Below, one piece after another: positions 2,323 through 36,556 of a stretch of DNA of 43,767 bases. Position numbers and translations under genes: made by a program. Position 1 is the first letter of the stretch. Every line of letters begins with the position of its first letter. The notes under the pieces were generated by a model. The model was given only the letters and a program-made list of their open reading frames with translations, had not been told where the DNA came from and ran no database searches. The stretch spans positions 1-43,767 of the forward strand of contig JAZDEQ010000016.1 of assembly GCA_043808565.1 (NCBI GenBank), in the 5' to 3' direction. This DNA is from Candidatus Uhrbacteria bacterium (GTDB lineage Bacteria; Patescibacteriota; Patescibacteriia; UBA9934; GWF2-40-263).

Positions 2323-2416
2323 CGAATATACGAATCTTTGAACTCGGTAAATTTGTAACTATGCCTTCAAACAAAAAACCAAATTCGTATATTCGGCACT
2401 TTTCGTAATTCGTAAC
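2302..2416. repeat. MITE-like palindromic element, family A copy 1 (115 bp; inverted relative to copies 2 and 5)
   Basis: 34-bp TIR GTTACGAATTACGAAAAGT(AA/GC)CGAATATACGAAT; supplies the last codons and stop of rimK and ends 4 nt before the folD ATG. Confidence 0.95.
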
Positions 2417-2420
2417 AAAT

Positions 2421-3269
2421 ATGCGCCTCTTGGACGGCAAAACTTTAGCCAAAAAAATTCGCGCGACCGTAAAAAACGAAGTCGCTAGTCTGGCTACCAA
2501 ACCTGGCCTGGCCGTTATTTTGGTTGGCAGTGATCCAGCTTCGCATCTTTACGTTTCTTTAAAAGAAAAAGCTTGCTTGACGGCGGGTATAAATTTCACT
2601 AAATATCTTTTCCTGGCCCAAACAACTGAAGCTGAATTACTACAAAAAATTAATGAGCTAAATCAAGATCAAAAAATCAACGGTATTTTGGTTCAACTTC
2701 CCTTACCCAACCAAAACGCCGATAAAATTATTGCCGCCATTAATCCCAACAAAGACGTTGATGGTTTTCATCCAGAAAATCTGCGGCGACTTGAAGCTAA
2801 CGAAACCTGTTTGGTTTCACCAGTCGTTTTGGGGGTCATGGAACTTTTAAAAAAAACTGGTGAATCATTAAATAATAAAAAAGCTGTTCTGGTAATGAGC
2901 CAAATTTTTGCTCGACCATTTACAGCTGTTTTTAATCAACAAAAAATCCAGACAGAAATAGTTTCAGCTGATGACCCGAATATTTTTGCTAAAACAAAAA
3001 ACAGCGATATTTTAATTACTGCTGTTGGTCGGCCAAATTTAATTGTCAGTCAAGGATTAAAAAACGGAGCTATTGTTATTGACATTGGAACAACTCACCT
3101 CAATGGTAAAGTAGTTGGCGATGTTGACATATCTTCGATTGAATCGACGGACGGTTGGCTTACTCCTGTTCCGGGCGGGGTGGGACCAATGACGGTGGCT
3201 TTACTCCTGCGAAACGTTTTGGCTGCTTCAAAGCAACATAACTTGCCACCAACAGCGCCAAAAAATTAA
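2421..3269 (+). CDS. folD: Bifunctional methylenetetrahydrofolate dehydrogenase/cyclohydrolase
   Basis: LLDGK, PGLAVILVG, GILVQLPLP, KDVDGFHP, TPVPGGVGPMTV motifs. Confidence 0.97.
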   Translation: MRLLDGKTLAKKIRATVKNEVASLATKPGLAVILVGSDPASHLYVSLKEKACLTAGINFTKYLFLAQTTEAELLQKINELNQDQKINGILVQLPLPNQNADKIIAAINPNKDVDGFHPENLRRLEANETCLVSPVVLGVMELLKKTGESLNNKKAVLVMSQIFARPFTAVFNQQKIQTEIVSADDPNIFAKTKNSDILITAVGRPNLIVSQGLKNGAIVIDIGTTHLNGKVVGDVDISSIESTDGWLTPVPGGVGPMTVALLLRNVLAASKQHNLPPTAPKN

Positions 3270-3594
3270 ATGATTCGGCTGTATAAGCCGAAGTCGAAAA
3301 AGCCTCCAGGGCTCCAATGTTTGGGGTAATAGCCAAAACCAACATACTGCCCAAAAAATCCAAAGCGATCCAAACGATCGCGTTTTTTATTCTTTGAGAA
3401 AGTTTAATAGCAAAACCTGGACGGAAATACAGCCAGCCAAAAAACAGTGTAGCCAACGGAACATTAACCATGGCCATCATGAGAAAAGCATTATTATAAT
3501 CAAAAATCATCCAAGCCGAAACCGCCAACAAGTTAAGGCCGTAGATAAAAGCAAAGTTTATTAGCCAGAAAAGAAAAAGACGTTTGAAGTGCAT
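3160..3594 (-). CDS. Small hypothetical membrane protein (about 4 TM helices)
   Basis: 144-aa hydrophobic ORF; its 3' end overlaps folD convergently by 110 bp. Confidence 0.7.
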   Translation of the reverse strand: MHFKRLFLFWLINFAFIYGLNLLAVSAWMIFDYNNAFLMMAMVNVPLATLFFGWLYFRPGFAIKLSQRIKNAIVWIALDFLGSMLVLAITPNIGALEAFSTSAYTAESFNFLALLVASYVALKQPKRFAGVKPPSLVPPRPEQE

Positions 3595-3604
3595 ATTTTA
3601 TTTT

Positions 3605-3766
3605 GTTACGAATTACGAAAAGTGCCGAATATACGAATTGGGTTTTTTATCGAAAGGCACAAAGATAACAAACTGATCTAGAGGAATATTTTTTCATCTT
3701 CCTTTGTCATCATTATAACTTTTGAACTCCAAATTCGTATATTCGTTACTTTTCGTAATTCGTAAC
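3605..3766. repeat. Family A element copy 2 (162 bp)
   Basis: Same 34-bp TIRs and related internal sequence. Confidence 0.95.
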
Positions 3767-3770
3767 GTCT

Positions 3771-4928
3771 TTATAAACTAAATATTGTTTGTACAATACC
3801 ACCGACAAAAATCATCACTAACAACCAAACTAAAGGCCGAGGAACATTTAAACAGTGGTGGGTTTTGAAAAAAACATTATGACGCATTTTTTCATACACG
3901 GCAATCACCAAAAGACCAATCAGGCCGCCAAAAACTCCGCCTAAAAAACCAACCAAACCAACGAATTCTTTTATACCCAAAAATAAAAGACCAACAGGAA
4001 CAAAAGAGGCCAAGGCCCAGGAAATTTTTTGCGGCCAATGATAATCCAAATGAAAAATGTTTTGGGTTTCCATGCTGACAACAGAAAAAATAGAAATTAC
4101 CGTAATCAAACCAAATAAAGAACCGATCACGGCAAAAGTTTGACCAAATACCGAAGCCAAACCATCAAAAGCCGCTTGAGTGGTAGCCGAGCCAGTTATG
4201 CCGACCACGGCAAAAGTAAAAATCGCGTAAAGAAATAAAATAATTATTTGTCCGGTAAGAATCGCGTGGGCTAAATTTTTCTCCCGACCCTTATTTGATA
4301 AAACATCTTTCATTTCCGGAATAACTCCTAAACCTGAAAAAGCAAAAAAAATCACACCGTAAGGAATAAACCAATTAGCTAAATGAAAAGAAGAAATATT
4401 CGACCAGTCAATTGACGGTAAAGCCACTAGGGTAATAAAGGCAAAAAGAAACAGTAAAGCGCAAATAATAAAAAATTCTATTTTAGCTAATTTCTTAAGA
4501 CCGCGAAAAGTTAGCGCTGAAACTAAGACGGCAACAAAAATTTGGTAAATAATAATTGGCCCGCCAAAAATTGGTGAAACTAAACGAAATAAAAAATCCC
4601 CGCCAATCAACATTTGAGCCAACATGGCTCCCCAAACATAAAAAATAAAAATAATAGCCGCAAAATGCCCAGGAATTTTACCCAAATATTTTTTAACATA
4701 CCCAGCCAGTCGGTGTTTGCCGCTAGTTTGGGAAACTACTTCGGCATACATGAGATTTAAAAACAACAACAGAAAACCAATTATCAAAAGAAAAACCAAA
4801 CCCAAAGCCCAACCGCTTTGAGCAAAAGCAAATGGCAAACCAAAAACGCCCACGCCAACCACCCCACCAATCATGGTGCCAACCGCCCGCCACCAAGGCC
4901 AATCAATATGTCCAGGTAATTTTTTCAT
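3771..4928 (-). CDS. Aromatic amino acid / APC-superfamily permease (Trp_Tyr_perm-like)
   Basis: GTMIGGVVGVGVFGLPFAFAQSG and YGVIFFAFSG.GVIPEM motifs, about 11 TM helices. Start placed at ATG 4928 downstream of an extended -10. Confidence 0.88.
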   Translation of the reverse strand: MKKLPGHIDWPWWRAVGTMIGGVVGVGVFGLPFAFAQSGWALGLVFLLIIGFLLLFLNLMYAEVVSQTSGKHRLAGYVKKYLGKIPGHFAAIIFIFYVWGAMLAQMLIGGDFLFRLVSPIFGGPIIIYQIFVAVLVSALTFRGLKKLAKIEFFIICALLFLFAFITLVALPSIDWSNISSFHLANWFIPYGVIFFAFSGLGVIPEMKDVLSNKGREKNLAHAILTGQIIILFLYAIFTFAVVGITGSATTQAAFDGLASVFGQTFAVIGSLFGLITVISIFSVVSMETQNIFHLDYHWPQKISWALASFVPVGLLFLGIKEFVGLVGFLGGVFGGLIGLLVIAVYEKMRHNVFFKTHHCLNVPRPLVWLLVMIFVGGIVQTIFSL

Positions 4929-4934
4929 GTCATC

Positions 4935-4943
4935 ATTATAGCA
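4935..4943 (-). promoter_or_regulatory. Extended -10 promoter (TGcTATAAT), probably leaderless transcript
   Basis: Minus strand reads TGCTATAAT-GATGAC-ATG. Confidence 0.7.
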
Positions 4944-4957
4944 CAAATATTTATTTG

Positions 4958-20842: not shown

Positions 20843-20928
20843 CGACGACGTAGAATCGACGATCGACAATTTTACGTCGTCGAAAACACCGTCGCACAAC
20901 CGAAGCGATCGCATCGGTTGTGCGACGG
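20843..20928. repeat. Two adjacent 40-bp palindromes centred on CGATCG
   Basis: 20843-20882 (3 mismatches) and 20889-20928 (1 mismatch). Confidence 0.85.
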
Positions 20929-32509: not shown

Positions 32510-34246
32510 TCAATTATTTTCTTCTAAGTATTTAAGATAACACGCTTGGCAATAAATTTTTCTTGTGGAATAAGTTTTGTTTTTAGCAACAAAAACATTT
32601 TTTTGACACTTACTACATTCCGATGTTTCAAAAGCCCAAGAATTGGCGCTTAAAAAAAGTTTTCTTACTCGACTAATAAAATGTGTAGTGGGCGGAGCGA
32701 TGCCTTCTTGTTTGTAAAAATCAATTTCTGGTTTTAAAAAAGTAAAACGGCGTTTAAATACCAGGTCATCAATCGCCACCCCAACCCAATCTTCTGATTT
32801 TAAGTCATTTATTTTGTCTGGAATTTCGTCTGGCTGTCTAACTTTGGTAGCTAAAGACAGTTGCTGACCAATAGCTCCATCTTGAGTTGGATCAAATATG
32901 TTAGCGTTAATTTTCTCACCAGTTTCAGTATCGGCCAGACAAAAGAAAGCGGCTCCTGATTCGGGAAAGTAAGATTGGGAAAACGAGGCGGGAAAATATT
33001 CTCCGTATTCACCGGCTTGTAACATTTGACATTTAATAGAATCAACAAGCGACCAATATTCTTCTTCTGTATACTGTTGATTTAAAATACAAAAACTTTT
33101 GCGTTTTAAACCAACACAACCAAAACAGTATTCACAGTCTTCACAATTCAAACAATATTCACAAGCGTGACACTGGCTACCCCAACCGACAAATTTACAA
33201 TCATTTGATTTACCGCACGGACAGCAAGAATAACAATTTTGTAAACCAGAACCACCGGTAAAAGCCGAATTTTCGGTGGGTAAAGATGAAAAAGCCGAAT
33301 AATAATTATTATTAGATTGAACCATTTGATAACAAAAACGGCTGTCTTTGCAATCTCTTAAATATTCACCAAGACAGTTTTGGCAGCCTTCATTAAAATT
33401 TTCTGGCCAAACACCTTGAGAAAAAATTAGTTCAGTAAAACGTTTATTTATTTGTTCGACAGTTTCGCGAGAGCTCAAATTAATTTTAGCTAGTTCAACT
33501 TCATAAGCTTCTTGGGTCAATTGTTGATTGAAGAAAATGTATTTCTTATTTCTCTGGTTAATTGCACCAAAACAAAATTCACAGTTTTGACAATCAAAAA
33601 GAAAAGCCGAATTAAGACAGTCAAAACATTCCCGAATGTATCGACAATTATGAATTCTCTGAGAGTGAACAATATTAAAAGAAGAAGTTACTTTTGAAGA
33701 GACGAAAAATTCGGCCGAATTTTCAATATCAAAAGACGCTGAACCAAAAAAACTTCCTTTGCTTCGACTGGCGCCAACAAAATAACTGTTTTGATCACCA
33801 TAAGAAGAGAAAACTAAAGAATTTTCTGGTTTTATGTAATTGCGAGTTGGCGCCAAAGGTATTTGAAGTTGAAGTTCTCTGAATTGTTTTAAAAAATTAA
33901 TCGTTTTGTTGTAATCTTTATTAATGGTGGAAAAATCACTTGCCGCGTATTCTTCATCGGTAATAACTTTTAATTTAGTGGCCGGGTGAACAACTGATAA
34001 AAGCGGGGCGTCAGTAATCGCATGTTTGTGCCACCAAAATTGATAAGCAACGGTAAAACTGGAAAGAATAGATAATCTTGCCCGGGGTGAATACTTAGAC
34101 GGCGGCACATTAAATTTTTTGTACCAACTGATTTCTTCTCCGTCCACGTTCCACTTCTCGTTTGTAAGAGCACAAATTTGCTCGCCGGGTTTTAATTCGT
34201 CGAGGATTTTTTTGATAGCAATGTCGTAATTCGGAGTTCGAGACAT
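32510..34246 (-). CDS. Cys-rich repeat hypothetical protein, paralog 2
   Basis: Colinear with paralog 1 (TPNYD, YKKFNVPP, QFWW, WPENFN, CFGC.GL..K.FCILN.QYTEEEY). Confidence 0.85.
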   Translation of the reverse strand: MSRTPNYDIAIKKILDELKPGEQICALTNEKWNVDGEEISWYKKFNVPPSKYSPRARLSILSSFTVAYQFWWHKHAITDAPLLSVVHPATKLKVITDEEYAASDFSTINKDYNKTINFLKQFRELQLQIPLAPTRNYIKPENSLVFSSYGDQNSYFVGASRSKGSFFGSASFDIENSAEFFVSSKVTSSFNIVHSQRIHNCRYIRECFDCLNSAFLFDCQNCEFCFGAINQRNKKYIFFNQQLTQEAYEVELAKINLSSRETVEQINKRFTELIFSQGVWPENFNEGCQNCLGEYLRDCKDSRFCYQMVQSNNNYYSAFSSLPTENSAFTGGSGLQNCYSCCPCGKSNDCKFVGWGSQCHACEYCLNCEDCEYCFGCVGLKRKSFCILNQQYTEEEYWSLVDSIKCQMLQAGEYGEYFPASFSQSYFPESGAAFFCLADTETGEKINANIFDPTQDGAIGQQLSLATKVRQPDEIPDKINDLKSEDWVGVAIDDLVFKRRFTFLKPEIDFYKQEGIAPPTTHFISRVRKLFLSANSWAFETSECSKCQKNVFVAKNKTYSTRKIYCQACYLKYLEENN

Positions 34247-34258
34247 AATCAAAATCGT

Positions 34259-34296
34259 TTTGCCATTTAAGGCTCGATCGAGCCTTAAATGGCAAA
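34259..34296. repeat. Perfect 38-bp palindrome centred on CGATCG
   Basis: TTTGCCATTTAAGGCTCGA|TCGAGCCTTAAATGGCAAA. Confidence 0.95.
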
Positions 34297-34303
34297 GAGT
34301 AAG

Positions 34304-35773
34304 CTAACGTTTAAACCAAATTTTCATCACTCGCCTGCAGGCTCGCCAAAATTTATGCTCTAACAGTGTAGCCCAAACCACGATGGCTGGAAAGACAATT
34401 ACGGCCCGAAAGATCCTTTGCCAACGCTTGGGCTCTATAAAGAGCCGCCAGAGCCATTCTAAGCCCATTTGGCGCATAAAATGCGGGGCACGAGGTCGGA
34501 AACCAGCAATCATATCTAAAGCGCCACCAATACCGATGGCGATTCGAACACCGGGGAGTTGAGGAAGAATTTTGGCAATAAATTTTTCCTGCTTTCCCTG
34601 CCCCAAAGCCACGGCTAAAATTTTTGGTTCGGTTTTAATAAGTTCGTCTATAATTGATTGAGTTGGCGATCCATTATTCGGCACGTCGCCGGGTTTGATA
34701 ATGACGATATTGGCATTTGGATATTTATTTTTTAGAACCTCGGCGGCTTTTTTAGTCACCTCTGGTCGTCCGCCAACAAGGGCCAGCCGTTCTCCGGTTT
34801 TTACGAGTCGGTCGATAGTATCGACGCCGGTGTGGCGGTGCTCAAGATAATCGTCGGTTAAAGCCGCAACGGCATATTCAAGACCAACACCATCAGGTAA
34901 GAATAAATCGGCTTGATTCAAAAGAGTTAAGAATTCTTTATCTTGTTTAGTTAAAAGAATAAATTCTGGGTTGGGAGTGACAATGGTTTTGGGTTCGGTT
35001 CCGTTAAGCCAATTCTGAAGAGTTTGATCGAGTTCTTGATCGGAGAAGTCGTTGATTTTGACATCGAAGATTGTGTGGAATTTCCTCATAATAACGTCGA
35101 ACGACGTTATTATGATTCCTGTTTTTTTTGATTCAAGGTAGTTTTTAAGCAGTAAAGGGATATTTTTTAGAGATTCTAGTGTAAAAAAACGATCAATCGT
35201 GGCATCATCAACATTTTTTTGTGGTTGGTAGTCGTTTAAAATATTTTGACAAAGCAAATCAATCAGACGTTCTTTTTCTGAAGGCCGCAGTTCGAATTTT
35301 TGAAAAATTTCCTCAAGACCAATATGAATCATTTCGTGAATAATAACACCAAGAAATTTTCTTTGATTATTTTGATTGATTATTATGTAGCCGCTGGGAT
35401 CGAAAGAACCGCCCGGGCCGTAAGCAGTTAAAAGAATTGTGTATTTATTTAATAATTTAAAGCCCCACTGTTTTTGCCATTCAGCCATTTTTTCATAGCC
35501 TTGTAAGATAATTGGTTGGCAATCAGAAATCTTTTTTAAGCTATTCGAAAAATCTAAATCAGGAAAAATTTCTTTTTTAAAAATATCAAATAATTCTTTT
35601 TCGTTTGTTTCGTTTATTTCTTTATTATTTTGATATAATTCAATAAATTCTTTTTGTTCAGGTAAATCGATTTTGTAATTGTTCTCTTTATAAAACTTGT
35701 CTTTTTTGTAAAGATTTTTTACATATTTAAAGGCCTCGTCAGTGGTTTGGGGGCGGATAATTAGGTTGGACAT
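34304..35773 (-). CDS. WecB/TagA/CpsF-family glycosyltransferase fused in-frame to an N-terminal HExxH (zincin-like) domain
   Basis: C-half (from ATG 35089): IVTPNPE, PDGVG, GVD, VALGQGKQE, GIGGALD, RAP..M..GLEWLWRL..EP.R. N-half: YGPGGSF…IIHEMIH. Confidence 0.8.
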   Translation of the reverse strand: MSNLIIRPQTTDEAFKYVKNLYKKDKFYKENNYKIDLPEQKEFIELYQNNKEINETNEKELFDIFKKEIFPDLDFSNSLKKISDCQPIILQGYEKMAEWQKQWGFKLLNKYTILLTAYGPGGSFDPSGYIIINQNNQRKFLGVIIHEMIHIGLEEIFQKFELRPSEKERLIDLLCQNILNDYQPQKNVDDATIDRFFTLESLKNIPLLLKNYLESKKTGIIITSFDVIMRKFHTIFDVKINDFSDQELDQTLQNWLNGTEPKTIVTPNPEFILLTKQDKEFLTLLNQADLFLPDGVGLEYAVAALTDDYLEHRHTGVDTIDRLVKTGERLALVGGRPEVTKKAAEVLKNKYPNANIVIIKPGDVPNNGSPTQSIIDELIKTEPKILAVALGQGKQEKFIAKILPQLPGVRIAIGIGGALDMIAGFRPRAPHFMRQMGLEWLWRLFIEPKRWQRIFRAVIVFPAIVVWATLLEHKFWRACRRVMKIWFKR

Positions 35774-35786
35774 AAAAAATATAGTG

Positions 35787-36319
35787 GGGTCATAATAGCG
35801 GCGGTCGTGGCTTTTTTGACCCCTTTTTTTCTTCAACTATAAAAACTTTTATCCATTTATCCAAACCTATTAAACAAAAAATTTCGGCCAAAAGATTTGC
35901 CGCGTCAAATTGTGAAATCCAAACACTTTTTTGAAGACGAATAAAACAAGAATCTTCTAAAAATATCCTTAAAGCTTCACGTATTTCTTTTTTTACCTCA
36001 GGAATATCAAAAACGACCATGCATTCCTTTCCACTGGGCAAAAGATCGGTTTGAGTTAATTCAAGTTTGAGGAATTCTATTAGACCTTTTTCCGTCAAAT
36101 AAAATTTCTTTTTTTTATTTCCAGTTTCAATAAAATTTCTTTTGATCAAACGCTTAACGTTATCCGATATGATTCTTTTGTCCTTTGTATAAACCCTCGA
36201 AGTGTTGCTGTGTCGACCAATGGAAATTAAAACTTCAGCCATTTTTGAGGTCGGCCTAATTTGATTAAATTTTATTTTTGGTTTACGCATAAAAGCCACG
36301 ATCGCCGTTATTATGACCC
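35787..36319 (-). mobile_element. Candidate IR-bounded single-gene cassette
   Basis: 29-bp inverted repeats (27/29 identical) at 35787-35815 and 36291-36319 bracket one gene. Confidence 0.5.
35790..36290 (-). CDS. PaaX-like protein: winged helix plus Cas2-like ferredoxin-fold domain
   Basis: RLIKRNFI…FYLTEKG (wHTH); MVVFDIPE..K.IREALR..L….F..LQKSVW (PaaX central/Cas2-like). Start placed at ATG 36290. Confidence 0.85.
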   Translation of the reverse strand: MRKPKIKFNQIRPTSKMAEVLISIGRHSNTSRVYTKDKRIISDNVKRLIKRNFIETGNKKKKFYLTEKGLIEFLKLELTQTDLLPSGKECMVVFDIPEVKKEIREALRIFLEDSCFIRLQKSVWISQFDAANLLAEIFCLIGLDKWIKVFIVEEKKGSKKPRPPLL

Positions 36320-36408
36320 ACAACCAAAATTCCTCTGCTGATCCATACAAGTTCCTTTCAAGTATTATTTCCTAAACAATTTTACCCAAAAACCCACTTA
36401 TTCACAAC

Positions 36409-36449
36409 TTGACTTTCCTAAATTGGCACTCTATACTTATGAGTGCTAA
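36409..36449 (+). promoter_or_regulatory. clpB promoter with CIRCE (HrcA operator)
   Basis: TTGACT (36409-14), 17 nt, TATACT (36432-37); TTGGCACTC-N9-GAGTGCTAA at 36423-36449, one mismatch to the CIRCE consensus. Confidence 0.92.
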
Positions 36450-36461
36450 TTTAAATTTTAA

Positions 36462-36556
36462 AATGTCTAATTTCTAATGTCTAATTACGGAATTTTGAAA
36501 TTCTTAAAGAAATAATAACAATCCTTCATTAGACATTCCCAATAATTAGAAATTTC
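36462..36556. repeat. Family B heptamer palindrome copy 3, in the clpB 5' UTR
   Basis: Homologous to 19003-19093. Confidence 0.85.

Follow-up and report, generated by a model that had tools for sequence, protein, structure and literature searches.

PaaX, a repressor that responds to phenylacetyl-CoA, controls the paa operons (E. coli W; PDB 8a39), and its expected target is a palindrome close to its own operon. Palindromes are also known as dispersed repeats: repetitive extragenic palindromic (REP) elements carry a GTAG head and are present in tens to hundreds of copies, and miniature inverted-repeat transposable elements (MITEs), Correia elements, Rickettsia palindromic elements (RPE) and enterobacterial repetitive intergenic consensus (ERIC) sequences are small intercistronic palindromic elements. 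Here we analysed a contig of a Candidatus Uhrbacteria bacterium (43,767 nucleotides (nt), the whole of which we call the window), in which a gene that we name mini-PaaX is enclosed by an inverted repeat at positions 35787-36319. mini-PaaX is a member of a large Patescibacteria family of small proteins combining a winged helix with a Cas2 fold, and our results support that the gene and its flanking repeats belong together. This gene-palindrome layout is general in bacteria of the Candidate Phyla Radiation (CPR) and apparently undescribed; full-text searches, judged from titles and abstract openings, returned no description of it. As an explanation, we incline slightly towards a dimeric mini-PaaX that controls its own operon by binding its cognate palindromes.

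The mini-PaaX gene lies between two copies of a dispersed palindrome

A repeat search placed the inverted-repeat arms at 35787-35818 and 36288-36319, 32 nt each, 91% complementary and spaced by 469 nt, so that the match of 27/29 positions reported by an earlier model reading of the letters alone (hereafter the sequence-only reading) holds and extends to 32 nt. The 29-mer, with up to 3 mismatches allowed, was found at just these two places in the window, vs a mean of 0.00 in 100 dinucleotide shuffles. The mini-PaaX open reading frame (ORF) occupies 35790-36290 of the minus strand, from an ATG at 36290 to a TGA at 35792-35790, and encodes 166 amino acids (aa) with an N-terminal winged helix followed by a Cas2-fold domain. 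The start codon is on the inner edge of the upstream arm and the stop codon within the downstream arm, much as had been noted before. The longest version of the ORF opens at a TTG at 36350; the N-terminus MRKPKIKFNQI is common to close homologs, and this supports the ATG over the upstream TTG.

Each arm alters an end of the gene. The upstream arm (36288-36319, minus strand; GGGTCA...CGATCG...TTTTATG) holds the start codon (36290-36288), is a truncated copy of an element that we call F1', without the terminal ACCCC, and has no local RNA fold (z-score +1.06). The downstream arm (35786-35823, plus strand; GGGGTCA...CGGTCG...TGACCCC) is a complete 38-nt F1' element, able to form a local hairpin of -15.3 kcal/mol (z -3.75); it encodes the C-terminal tail SKKPRPPLL, which is missing from the paralogs, together with the stop codon, and it ends 13 nt from the ATG of the next ORF (35773). 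The C-terminal tails of close homologs (e.g., ...NKVDRPY...) are likewise translations of their own palindromes.

We also looked for the arms in the source assembly (G000; 1.17 Mb (1.165 Mb) in 84 contigs). The 29-mer recurs identically at contig C58:5591-5619, with no gene inside, and with 4 mismatches at C67:37744-37772; the arms are not private to the mini-PaaX gene and are copies of a dispersed element. Read with their flanks, the copies define F1' as a quasi-palindromic unit of ~37 nt, GGGTCATAATAACGGCGATCGTGGCTTTTATGACCCC, centred on CGATCG, of which G000 has just 4 copies, 2 of them flanking the mini-PaaX gene; the upstream arm is such a copy minus its last five bases, and 35786-35823 is a full one. 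F1' is a decayed relative (24/30 positions) of a perfect 30-nt palindrome, F1 (TCAYAATAACGTCG-NN-CGACGTTATTRTGA), with sites at 35086-35115 of the window and on contigs C31, C57 and C77. The inverted repeat therefore consists of two copies of a dispersed quasi-palindrome in opposite orientation and is no pair of transposon ends. The flanking F1' copies are degenerate and asymmetric, and their inverted orientation, which yields the inverted repeat of 29-32 nt, is happenstance.

G000 has three more mini-PaaX paralogs (4 genes in all), 33-38% identical, and each lies between copies of a CGATCG-centred palindrome family of its own: GTCGCACAAC... for the paralog on C79 (family F2), GCCATTTAAGG... 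for that on C23 (family F3) and TTTTTRAACGATCG for that on C55. When 998 roughly called G000 ORFs were scored for inverted similarity between their own two flanks, the four paralogs ranked 8, 32, 36 and 99. We counted 221 hairpins or palindromes with 11 or more pairs in the genome, and identical 30-mers are found at three unlinked loci.

Homologs across the CPR share the gene-palindrome layout

We then scanned one genome per species and obtained 24 homologous loci from Uhrbacteria, Saccharibacteria, Berkelbacteria, Curtissbacteria, Jorgensenbacteria and other CPR groups. Using the 998 G000 ORFs as background, a flank score of at least 14 was reached by 18/24 loci (16/22 without two near-duplicates) vs 42/998 (4.2%). 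A general lack of flanking repeats in homologs had been named in advance as evidence against the sequence-only reading; in fact, most of them carry such repeats. The upstream and downstream dyads of each locus are visibly the same sequence, 30-46 nt long, with arms that vary between loci and centres that are CGATCG, CCATGG, CATATG, CGTACG or CCGGCCGG, mostly self-complementary hexamers. Usually, the upstream dyad covers the start codon or has its end no more than ~15 nt away, and the downstream dyad lies 0-36 nt past the stop codon or over it.

The co-variation of repeat and protein that the sequence-only reading had proposed to test was also observed: half-site distance correlated with protein distance (Mantel r 0.26, permutation p 2e-4) over 24/26 loci, with L010 and L019 left out for their weak dyads and the window site entered by hand, in a set where kin are not independent and relatedness inflates the value. 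The same reading had offered, as its first option, a selfish element whose protein recognises its own ends. The association of gene and palindrome indirectly supports the recognition part of this idea, suggesting that the protein may read the repeats; the mobile-cassette part found no support.

mini-PaaX combines a winged helix with a Cas2-like fold

Pfam matched residues 90-160 of mini-PaaX to PaaX_M (PF20803; E-value (E) 1.5e-12, 47.9 bits vs a cut-off of 24). Pfam Cas2 (PF09827) remained sub-threshold (21.8 bits vs a cut-off of 23.8), the NCBIfam Cas2 model TIGR01573 reached 27 bits vs a cut-off of 24.5 over just 39 residues (91-129), and PADLOC gave partial Cas2 matches only. The N-terminal winged-helix domain of PaaX (PF07848) was not matched at E <=0.1, with a weak HTH_45 match at E 0.022 instead, and PaaX_C (PF08223) was not matched in the 166-aa protein, which stops ~10 residues past the Cas2-like domain. 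In the AlphaFold2 model, built from 26 sequences (mean predicted local distance difference test (pLDDT) 88.5, predicted template modelling score (pTM) 0.76), the N-terminal half is winged-helix-like. Compared with the PDB by Foldseek, the model matched E. coli PaaX 8a39 best (E 8.1e-3, probability 0.99, 164 aligned columns); next came many Cas2 chains, with probabilities of 0.98-1.00. These results bear out the winged helix plus Cas2-like fold recognised earlier, and neither Pfam nor Foldseek revealed a transposase family or fold for mini-PaaX.

A single-sequence phmmer search of PDB sequences gave nothing at E <=1, and the profile of the 26 sequences found Cas2 6jhz at E 7.8e-4, with the motifs FD.P and QKSV common to both and D95 aligned with the FDLP of 6jhz. 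Residues D95, R104, Q120, S122, V123 and W124 are invariant in the 26-sequence alignment, and K121 is present in at least 90% of it. The absence of cas1, noted earlier for the window, extends to the whole assembly, rated 100% complete, where Cas1 (PF01867) had no match; no CRISPR array was noticed near the mini-PaaX gene, with no dedicated array search made.

Modelled as a homodimer, mini-PaaX reached an interface score (ipSAE) of 0.58 vs 0.01 for the best control, a mark reached by 20/30 proteins solved as pairs and by 1/23 solved as single chains. The runs agreed in at least 66% of contacts, with a partner pLDDT of at least 75, and the modelled interface is in the Cas2-fold domain (residues 91-95, 119-123, 131-139 and 148-159). 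As Cas2 dimers have already been solved, this result may only reflect likeness to them.

Synteny points to an old resident of the WecG operon

The next conserved gene of the operon encodes a WecG/TagA-family glycosyltransferase (34304-35089, minus strand; Pfam Glyco_tran_WecG, E 4.5e-44), followed by a 580-aa Cys-rich protein; clpB lies on the other side. A total of 30 relatives were searched with the region, the same-genus genomes G001-G004 in detail; G006 belongs to another genus. G001 has a precise empty site, where 6 nt separate the WecG start codon from the conserved block ATTTTACCCAAAAACC..., a block whose start in the window is at 36379. In G006 WecG adjoins clpB, and in G003 and G004 unrelated genes fill the WecG-clpB gap. 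G004 also retains a relic palindrome directly beside WecG, with a half-site equal, as read by eye, to that of the window at 16/18 positions, which points to gene loss there, not insertion. The empty sites between WecG and clpB that the sequence-only reading had proposed to look for were found in G001 and G006 and replaced ones in G003 and G004.

Orthologs are syntenic where they occur. A 53%-identical homolog is beside WecG in G002, at a contig end, and orthologs of 51-63% identity precede WecG in the metagenomic loci L095, L096 and L097. The order mini-PaaX, WecG, 580-aa gene is found in L095 and L097, with the 580-aa gene unmatched in L096, and L095 also has the divergent clpB upstream. All three loci, like G002, have their own related palindromes at the start, abutting the ATG, and over the stop; the flanking copies in L095 and L096 are direct, not inverted, and L097 has F1-type copies over the mini-PaaX stop, before WecG and before the 580-aa gene. 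Among the close homologs, the tail of P0003 is encoded in L097, P0005 is the L095 protein, and the L096 protein is a near relative of P0007. Fixed synteny next to clpB without empty alleles had been the other point named in advance against the sequence-only reading; the orthologs are indeed syntenic, but empty or replaced sites exist as well.

Compared with G001, the indel (~35090-36378) exceeds the unit formed by the gene and its two arms, as it adds an ORF with an HExxH motif and a third palindrome, and no target-site duplication was found at its boundaries. The unit itself is single-copy in G000. The mini-PaaX family as a whole is patchy, with 0-9 copies across 31 relatives, 18/31 having at least one, and 4, 2, 4, 0 and 0 copies within the genus. 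Considering the synteny of the orthologs and the related palindromes at their start and stop codons, mini-PaaX is an old resident heading the WecG operon, lost in some lineages, rather than a cassette that has moved recently.

Congeners differ in solo palindrome insertions

We asked how the palindromes that flank no mini-PaaX gene behave between congeners, and those at all 3 sites checked were insertion-polymorphic. The 40-nt palindrome at C57:2981-3020 is exactly missing from the same junction in G001 and G004. The palindrome at C31:12400-12431 separates an rnpA-like from a yidD-like gene, two genes that overlap in G003 (by ATGA) and have 5 nt between them in G002. The third, an F3 palindrome (TTTGCCATTTAAGGCTCGATCGAGCCTTAAATGGCAAA) at 34259-34296 of the window, fills the junction between WecG and the 580-aa gene (z -8.59) and is missing at the same G001 junction. 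No clear target-site duplication was seen at the C57 and C31 junctions compared. Two other sites, C79:3797 and window 20889, have flanking genes that are multi-copy or rearranged in congeners, so that orthologous sites could not be compared.

The families are also species-specific. F1 and F3, each with 6 sites in G000, are missing from G001-G004; another family is confined to G001, with 3 sites, and one palindrome, present once, to G002. In G003, scanned on one contig (C1; 366 kb, from a genome in which no homolog was found), there are 0 CGATCG-centred palindromes of at least 11 pairs vs 10 in G000 (1.165 Mb); hairpin density (186 vs 190 per Mb) and CGATCG frequency (300 vs 278 per Mb) are similar in the two. 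With ~3 expected (Poisson P ~0.04), this shortage weakly supports a dependence of the palindromes on the protein.

Rfam found no family at gathering score other than a tRNA elsewhere, the palindromes giving just chance-level matches (E 0.3-0.8), and no metagenome contig scanned contained an exact match to a 26-base pattern that combines both arms.

The repeat landscape of G000 includes further elements. A 28-nt hairpin module, GTCCRCCGWAGCYCRGCGAAGGYGGA, has 23 sites (e.g., C54:2006-2033, C58:5665-5692 and C79:16906-16933), with a stem position that covaries as A-T, G-C, C-G and T-A, and is often nested at the centre of different palindrome families, including the palindrome upstream of the C79 paralog. 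Other zero-loop families end in GTAGGG...CCCTAC and are centred on CCTAGG, TGGCCA or AATT (C30:7366-7417, C36:4802-4851, C40:6474-6505, C37:19454-19483 and others); they occur in G003 too (C1:345751-345782), a genome without a mini-PaaX gene.

A proposed dimeric regulator on cognate palindromes and its alternatives

Taken together, we consider it somewhat more probable than its opposite that mini-PaaX acts as a dimer on its cognate palindromes and controls its own operon, which corresponds, its looping set aside, to the autoregulatory pair of operators that the sequence-only reading had offered as its second option. We infer DNA binding, the geometry of the dimer, repression and the use of the promoter as follows. 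mini-PaaX would dimerise through its Cas2-fold domain and occupy the dyad, where each arm would be read by one winged helix; its sites would be those over its own start codon and over its stop, just ahead of the next cistron. Binding would repress or gate the operon (mini-PaaX, the HExxH ORF, WecG and the 580-aa protein) from the conserved putative promoter upstream, acting as a roadblock on its own gene and on the genes downstream, and the related F1 palindromes found at gene junctions elsewhere would be further targets of mini-PaaX.

Binding of a dimer to duplex DNA is favoured by four observations: the self-complementary centres of the dyads, the paralog-specific arms, the nearest characterised relative, which is a repressor, and the dimer predicted through the Cas2-fold domain. 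In particular, self-complementary hexamer centres are better suited to duplex DNA bound by a two-fold symmetric dimer than to a hairpin loop. If the protein binds the palindromes, the family would provide many orthogonal pairs of protein and DNA site from organisms whose regulation is almost unknown, each pair consisting of a small protein and a co-diverging site of 30-40 bp.

Several results weigh against this model. D95, at the position of the catalytic Asp of Cas2, is invariant, and a pure repressor has no need for it, though its role is maybe structural. If the promoter-like sequence TTGTGA-17-TAAAAT upstream of the gene is the promoter, the upstream site would be at about +53 to +84 and not over the -35 and -10 boxes, so that repression would need a roadblock. 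The arms in the window are poor palindromes, so that binding of a dimer would be asymmetric. Moreover, the solo palindromes are precise insertions in very tight junctions (rnpA/yidD), more like selfish spread than a designed regulon, and some palindromes are orphans without a partner, one in G004, where no homolog was found, and two in G001, with no evident cognate paralog.

These features lead to a second explanation, which we regard as possible but rather unlikely, namely that mini-PaaX copies or maintains its own palindromes in the manner of REP elements and their associated tyrosine transposases (REP/RAYT). The solo palindromes would then be non-autonomous satellites, the Cas2-fold domain a nuclease at the CGATCG centre and the winged helix the source of arm specificity, with the gene itself a vertically inherited resident. 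The layout fits, with a single gene between palindrome copies and solo copies dispersed in intergenic DNA, precisely present or absent at the C57, C31 and F3 sites, and so do the species-specific families, the identical 30-mers at unlinked loci, the shortage of CGATCG palindromes on the G003 contig, the variable gene copy number, the invariant D95 and the 28-nt module nested at the palindrome centres of two families. But copy numbers are tiny (~4-10 per family), no clear target-site duplication accompanies the junctions compared, the orphan palindromes of G004 persist with no gene detected, and orthologous sites are kept at operon junctions, suggesting a host function. To our knowledge, no strand-transfer chemistry is described for the Cas2 fold.

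The only IS200-type Y1 transposase gene of G000 (C31:13235-13588) was considered as a mobiliser of the palindromes and judged unlikely, as its hairpin ends (GGCTGGTGGC... / CCACCAGC...) are unrelated to them. A stretch of ~130 nt just upstream of this gene has many repeats in G004 and G001, mostly at contig ends.

In its boldest form, which we put forward tentatively and do not expect to hold, the winged-helix Cas2-fold protein would be a dedicated partner, possibly a nuclease or propagator, of its own mobile palindromes, a non-HUH counterpart of REP/RAYT in genome-reduced CPR bacteria and possibly a living analogue of the ancestral association of Cas2 with palindromic repeats, older than CRISPR adaptation modules. 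Should the protein spread its palindromes as well, this would be a new system of repeat and partner, with a bearing on the origin of the role of Cas2 beside CRISPR repeats. A REP/RAYT-like role and the regulatory role of a dimeric mini-PaaX are not mutually exclusive.

Improbable, in our opinion, is an element working at the RNA level, with mRNA hairpins acting on stability, processing or start-codon occlusion, and with the protein as an RNA-binding or RNase factor of the Cas2/VapD type; long-range pairing between the two arms in the window might likewise enclose the ORF. The sites are indeed in transcribed junctions overlapping start and stop codons, several hairpins are strong (z -3.75 to -8.59), the stem of the 28-nt module covaries, and some Cas2 and VapD proteins are RNases, in part according to PDB titles. 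Against this reading, the dyad centres are self-complementary hexamers, needless for a hairpin loop, the upstream arm has no local fold, and both arm mismatches are A-C on the mRNA strand, not G-U. Moreover, the direct copies in L095 and L096 imply that long-range pairing is not general, and no Rfam family was matched.

The minimal mobile cassette with terminal inverted repeats, the leading proposal of the sequence-only reading, is largely refuted and now appears very improbable. Its protein would act on the terminal repeats and the unit would move whole, for which the tight arrangement with no spare DNA, the empty site in G001 and G006 and the patchy gene family could be cited. It is contradicted by the lack of a second copy of the unit, the syntenic orthologs, the direct flanks in L095 and L096, a G001 indel that takes in the HExxH ORF and a third palindrome, the G004 relic beside WecG, which indicates loss, and the lack of a transposase fold. 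Finally, mere coincidence, i.e., two copies of an abundant dispersed repeat beside an unrelated gene in a genome with many palindrome families (221 hairpins or palindromes), is refuted by the family-wide association and has next to no probability left, as 2 of just 4 variant copies flank the gene and 4/4 paralogs and 18/24 homologs are flanked vs 4.2% of the background.

Neighbouring features of the locus

Downstream of mini-PaaX, the HExxH ORF (35117-35773, minus strand; 219 codons, HEMIH motif, no Pfam family at E <=0.1) sits between two palindromes and has no stop codon of its own, reading in frame through the perfect F1 palindrome at 35086-35115 (TCATAATAACGTCG-AA-CGACGTTATTATGA; z -6.24) into WecG. 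This palindrome overlaps the WecG start codon (ATG 35089-35087), is orthologous to the F1 copy ahead of WecG in L097, and WecG orthologs begin at the equivalent Met. The HExxH ORF is genome-specific at this locus, absent there in G001-G004 and G006, and has homologs in 4/31 genomes, the G004 one being at another locus and ~177 aa long. As that homolog has no CGATCG palindromes nearby, the HExxH ORF was rejected as a palindrome-bounded cassette. For annotation, palindromes of this kind alter gene ends; here they fuse two ORFs and contribute the codons for start and stop as well as a tail of 9 residues. The mini-PaaX genes themselves are easily mislabelled as Cas2 or PaaX.

The promoter-like sequence TTGTGA-17-TAAAAT (36379-36407, minus strand; 9/12 consensus matches) is kept in G001, G004 and L095. 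It is 6 nt from the WecG ATG in G001; as a putative promoter, it would give a leader of ~80 nt here, with the upstream arm in it.

The other features concern the rest of the operon, clpB and the window. The 580-aa protein is encoded at 32510-34252 (minus strand) and at C67:37782-39497, has no Pfam family and begins with MS.TPNYD; its family is multi-copy, with many tandem copies in G001 (C85), G002 (C61) and G004 (C79). Upstream of clpB, a promoter-like TTGACT-17-TATACT (36409-36437) overlaps an inverted repeat, TTGGCACTC-N9-GAGTGCTAA (36423-36449), similar to the controlling inverted repeat of chaperone expression (CIRCE). This arrangement is kept in G001, G002, G003, G004, G006 and L095 and suggests control of clpB by HrcA. 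The clpB leader holds (at ~36462-36556) a repeat of ~95 nt, TGTCTAATTTCTAATGTCTAATT..., with ~10 more copies in G000 (on C4, C15, C28, C38, C55, C61 and C80, and at ~19010 of the window) and others in congeners. In the WecG-clpB gap of G003 (locus L040, C1:142500-148500), a 414-aa ORF at 2361-3605, with a G+C content that, judged from its sequence, is well above its surroundings, looks like foreign DNA. Elsewhere in the window, an F2 palindrome (CCGTCGCACAACCGAAGCGATCGCATCGGTTGTGCGACGG), of the family that flanks the C79 paralog, is at 20889-20928. The ORF at 3771-4946 has the top flank inverted-repeat score of the genome, with a 38-nt repeat, CCAAATTCGTATATTCGTTACTTTTCGTAATTCGTAAC, and a second copy with the same ends is found at C81:4272-5180; this unit is probably an insertion sequence.

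Comparison with known systems

Like PaaX (family model TIGR02277), mini-PaaX has a winged helix at its N-terminus ahead of a Cas2-like domain, with PaaX_M above cut-off and PaaX as the best structural match. Unlike PaaX, it is about half the size (166 aa vs a chain of 305 residues) and has no PaaX_C effector domain; its neighbours are WecG/TagA, the HExxH ORF, the 580-aa Cys-rich protein and clpB, and no paa genes are nearby, with no genome-wide paa search made. Its sites also differ, being palindromes of 30-40 bp on both sides of the gene, paralog-specific and found as insertion-polymorphic solo copies as well.

In common with Cas2 (TIGR01573, PF09827; PDB 6jhz and 5zyf), mini-PaaX has a ferredoxin-like fold, the motifs FD.P (including the beta-1 Asp) and QKSV, and a dimer predicted through this domain. 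It differs in that its genome has no Cas1 and no CRISPR context was noticed, in an extra winged helix at the N-terminus and in a Pfam Cas2 score below the cut-off. The likeness to REP/RAYT consists of a resident single gene between palindrome copies, scattered intergenic solo copies, a lineage-specific repeat and vertical inheritance with losses; however, mini-PaaX is not a HUH/Y1 enzyme, copies per family are few and its palindromes lack the GTAG head. As in MITEs, Correia, RPE and ERIC elements, short palindromes are inserted at junctions, can supply stop and start codons and are polymorphic between relatives, but each mini-PaaX palindrome family is tied to the cognate gene of DNA-binding type that it flanks, and no transposase partner is evident. 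In conclusion, the system, apparently undescribed, is a variation on known kinds, PaaX-like repressors and REP-like repeats.

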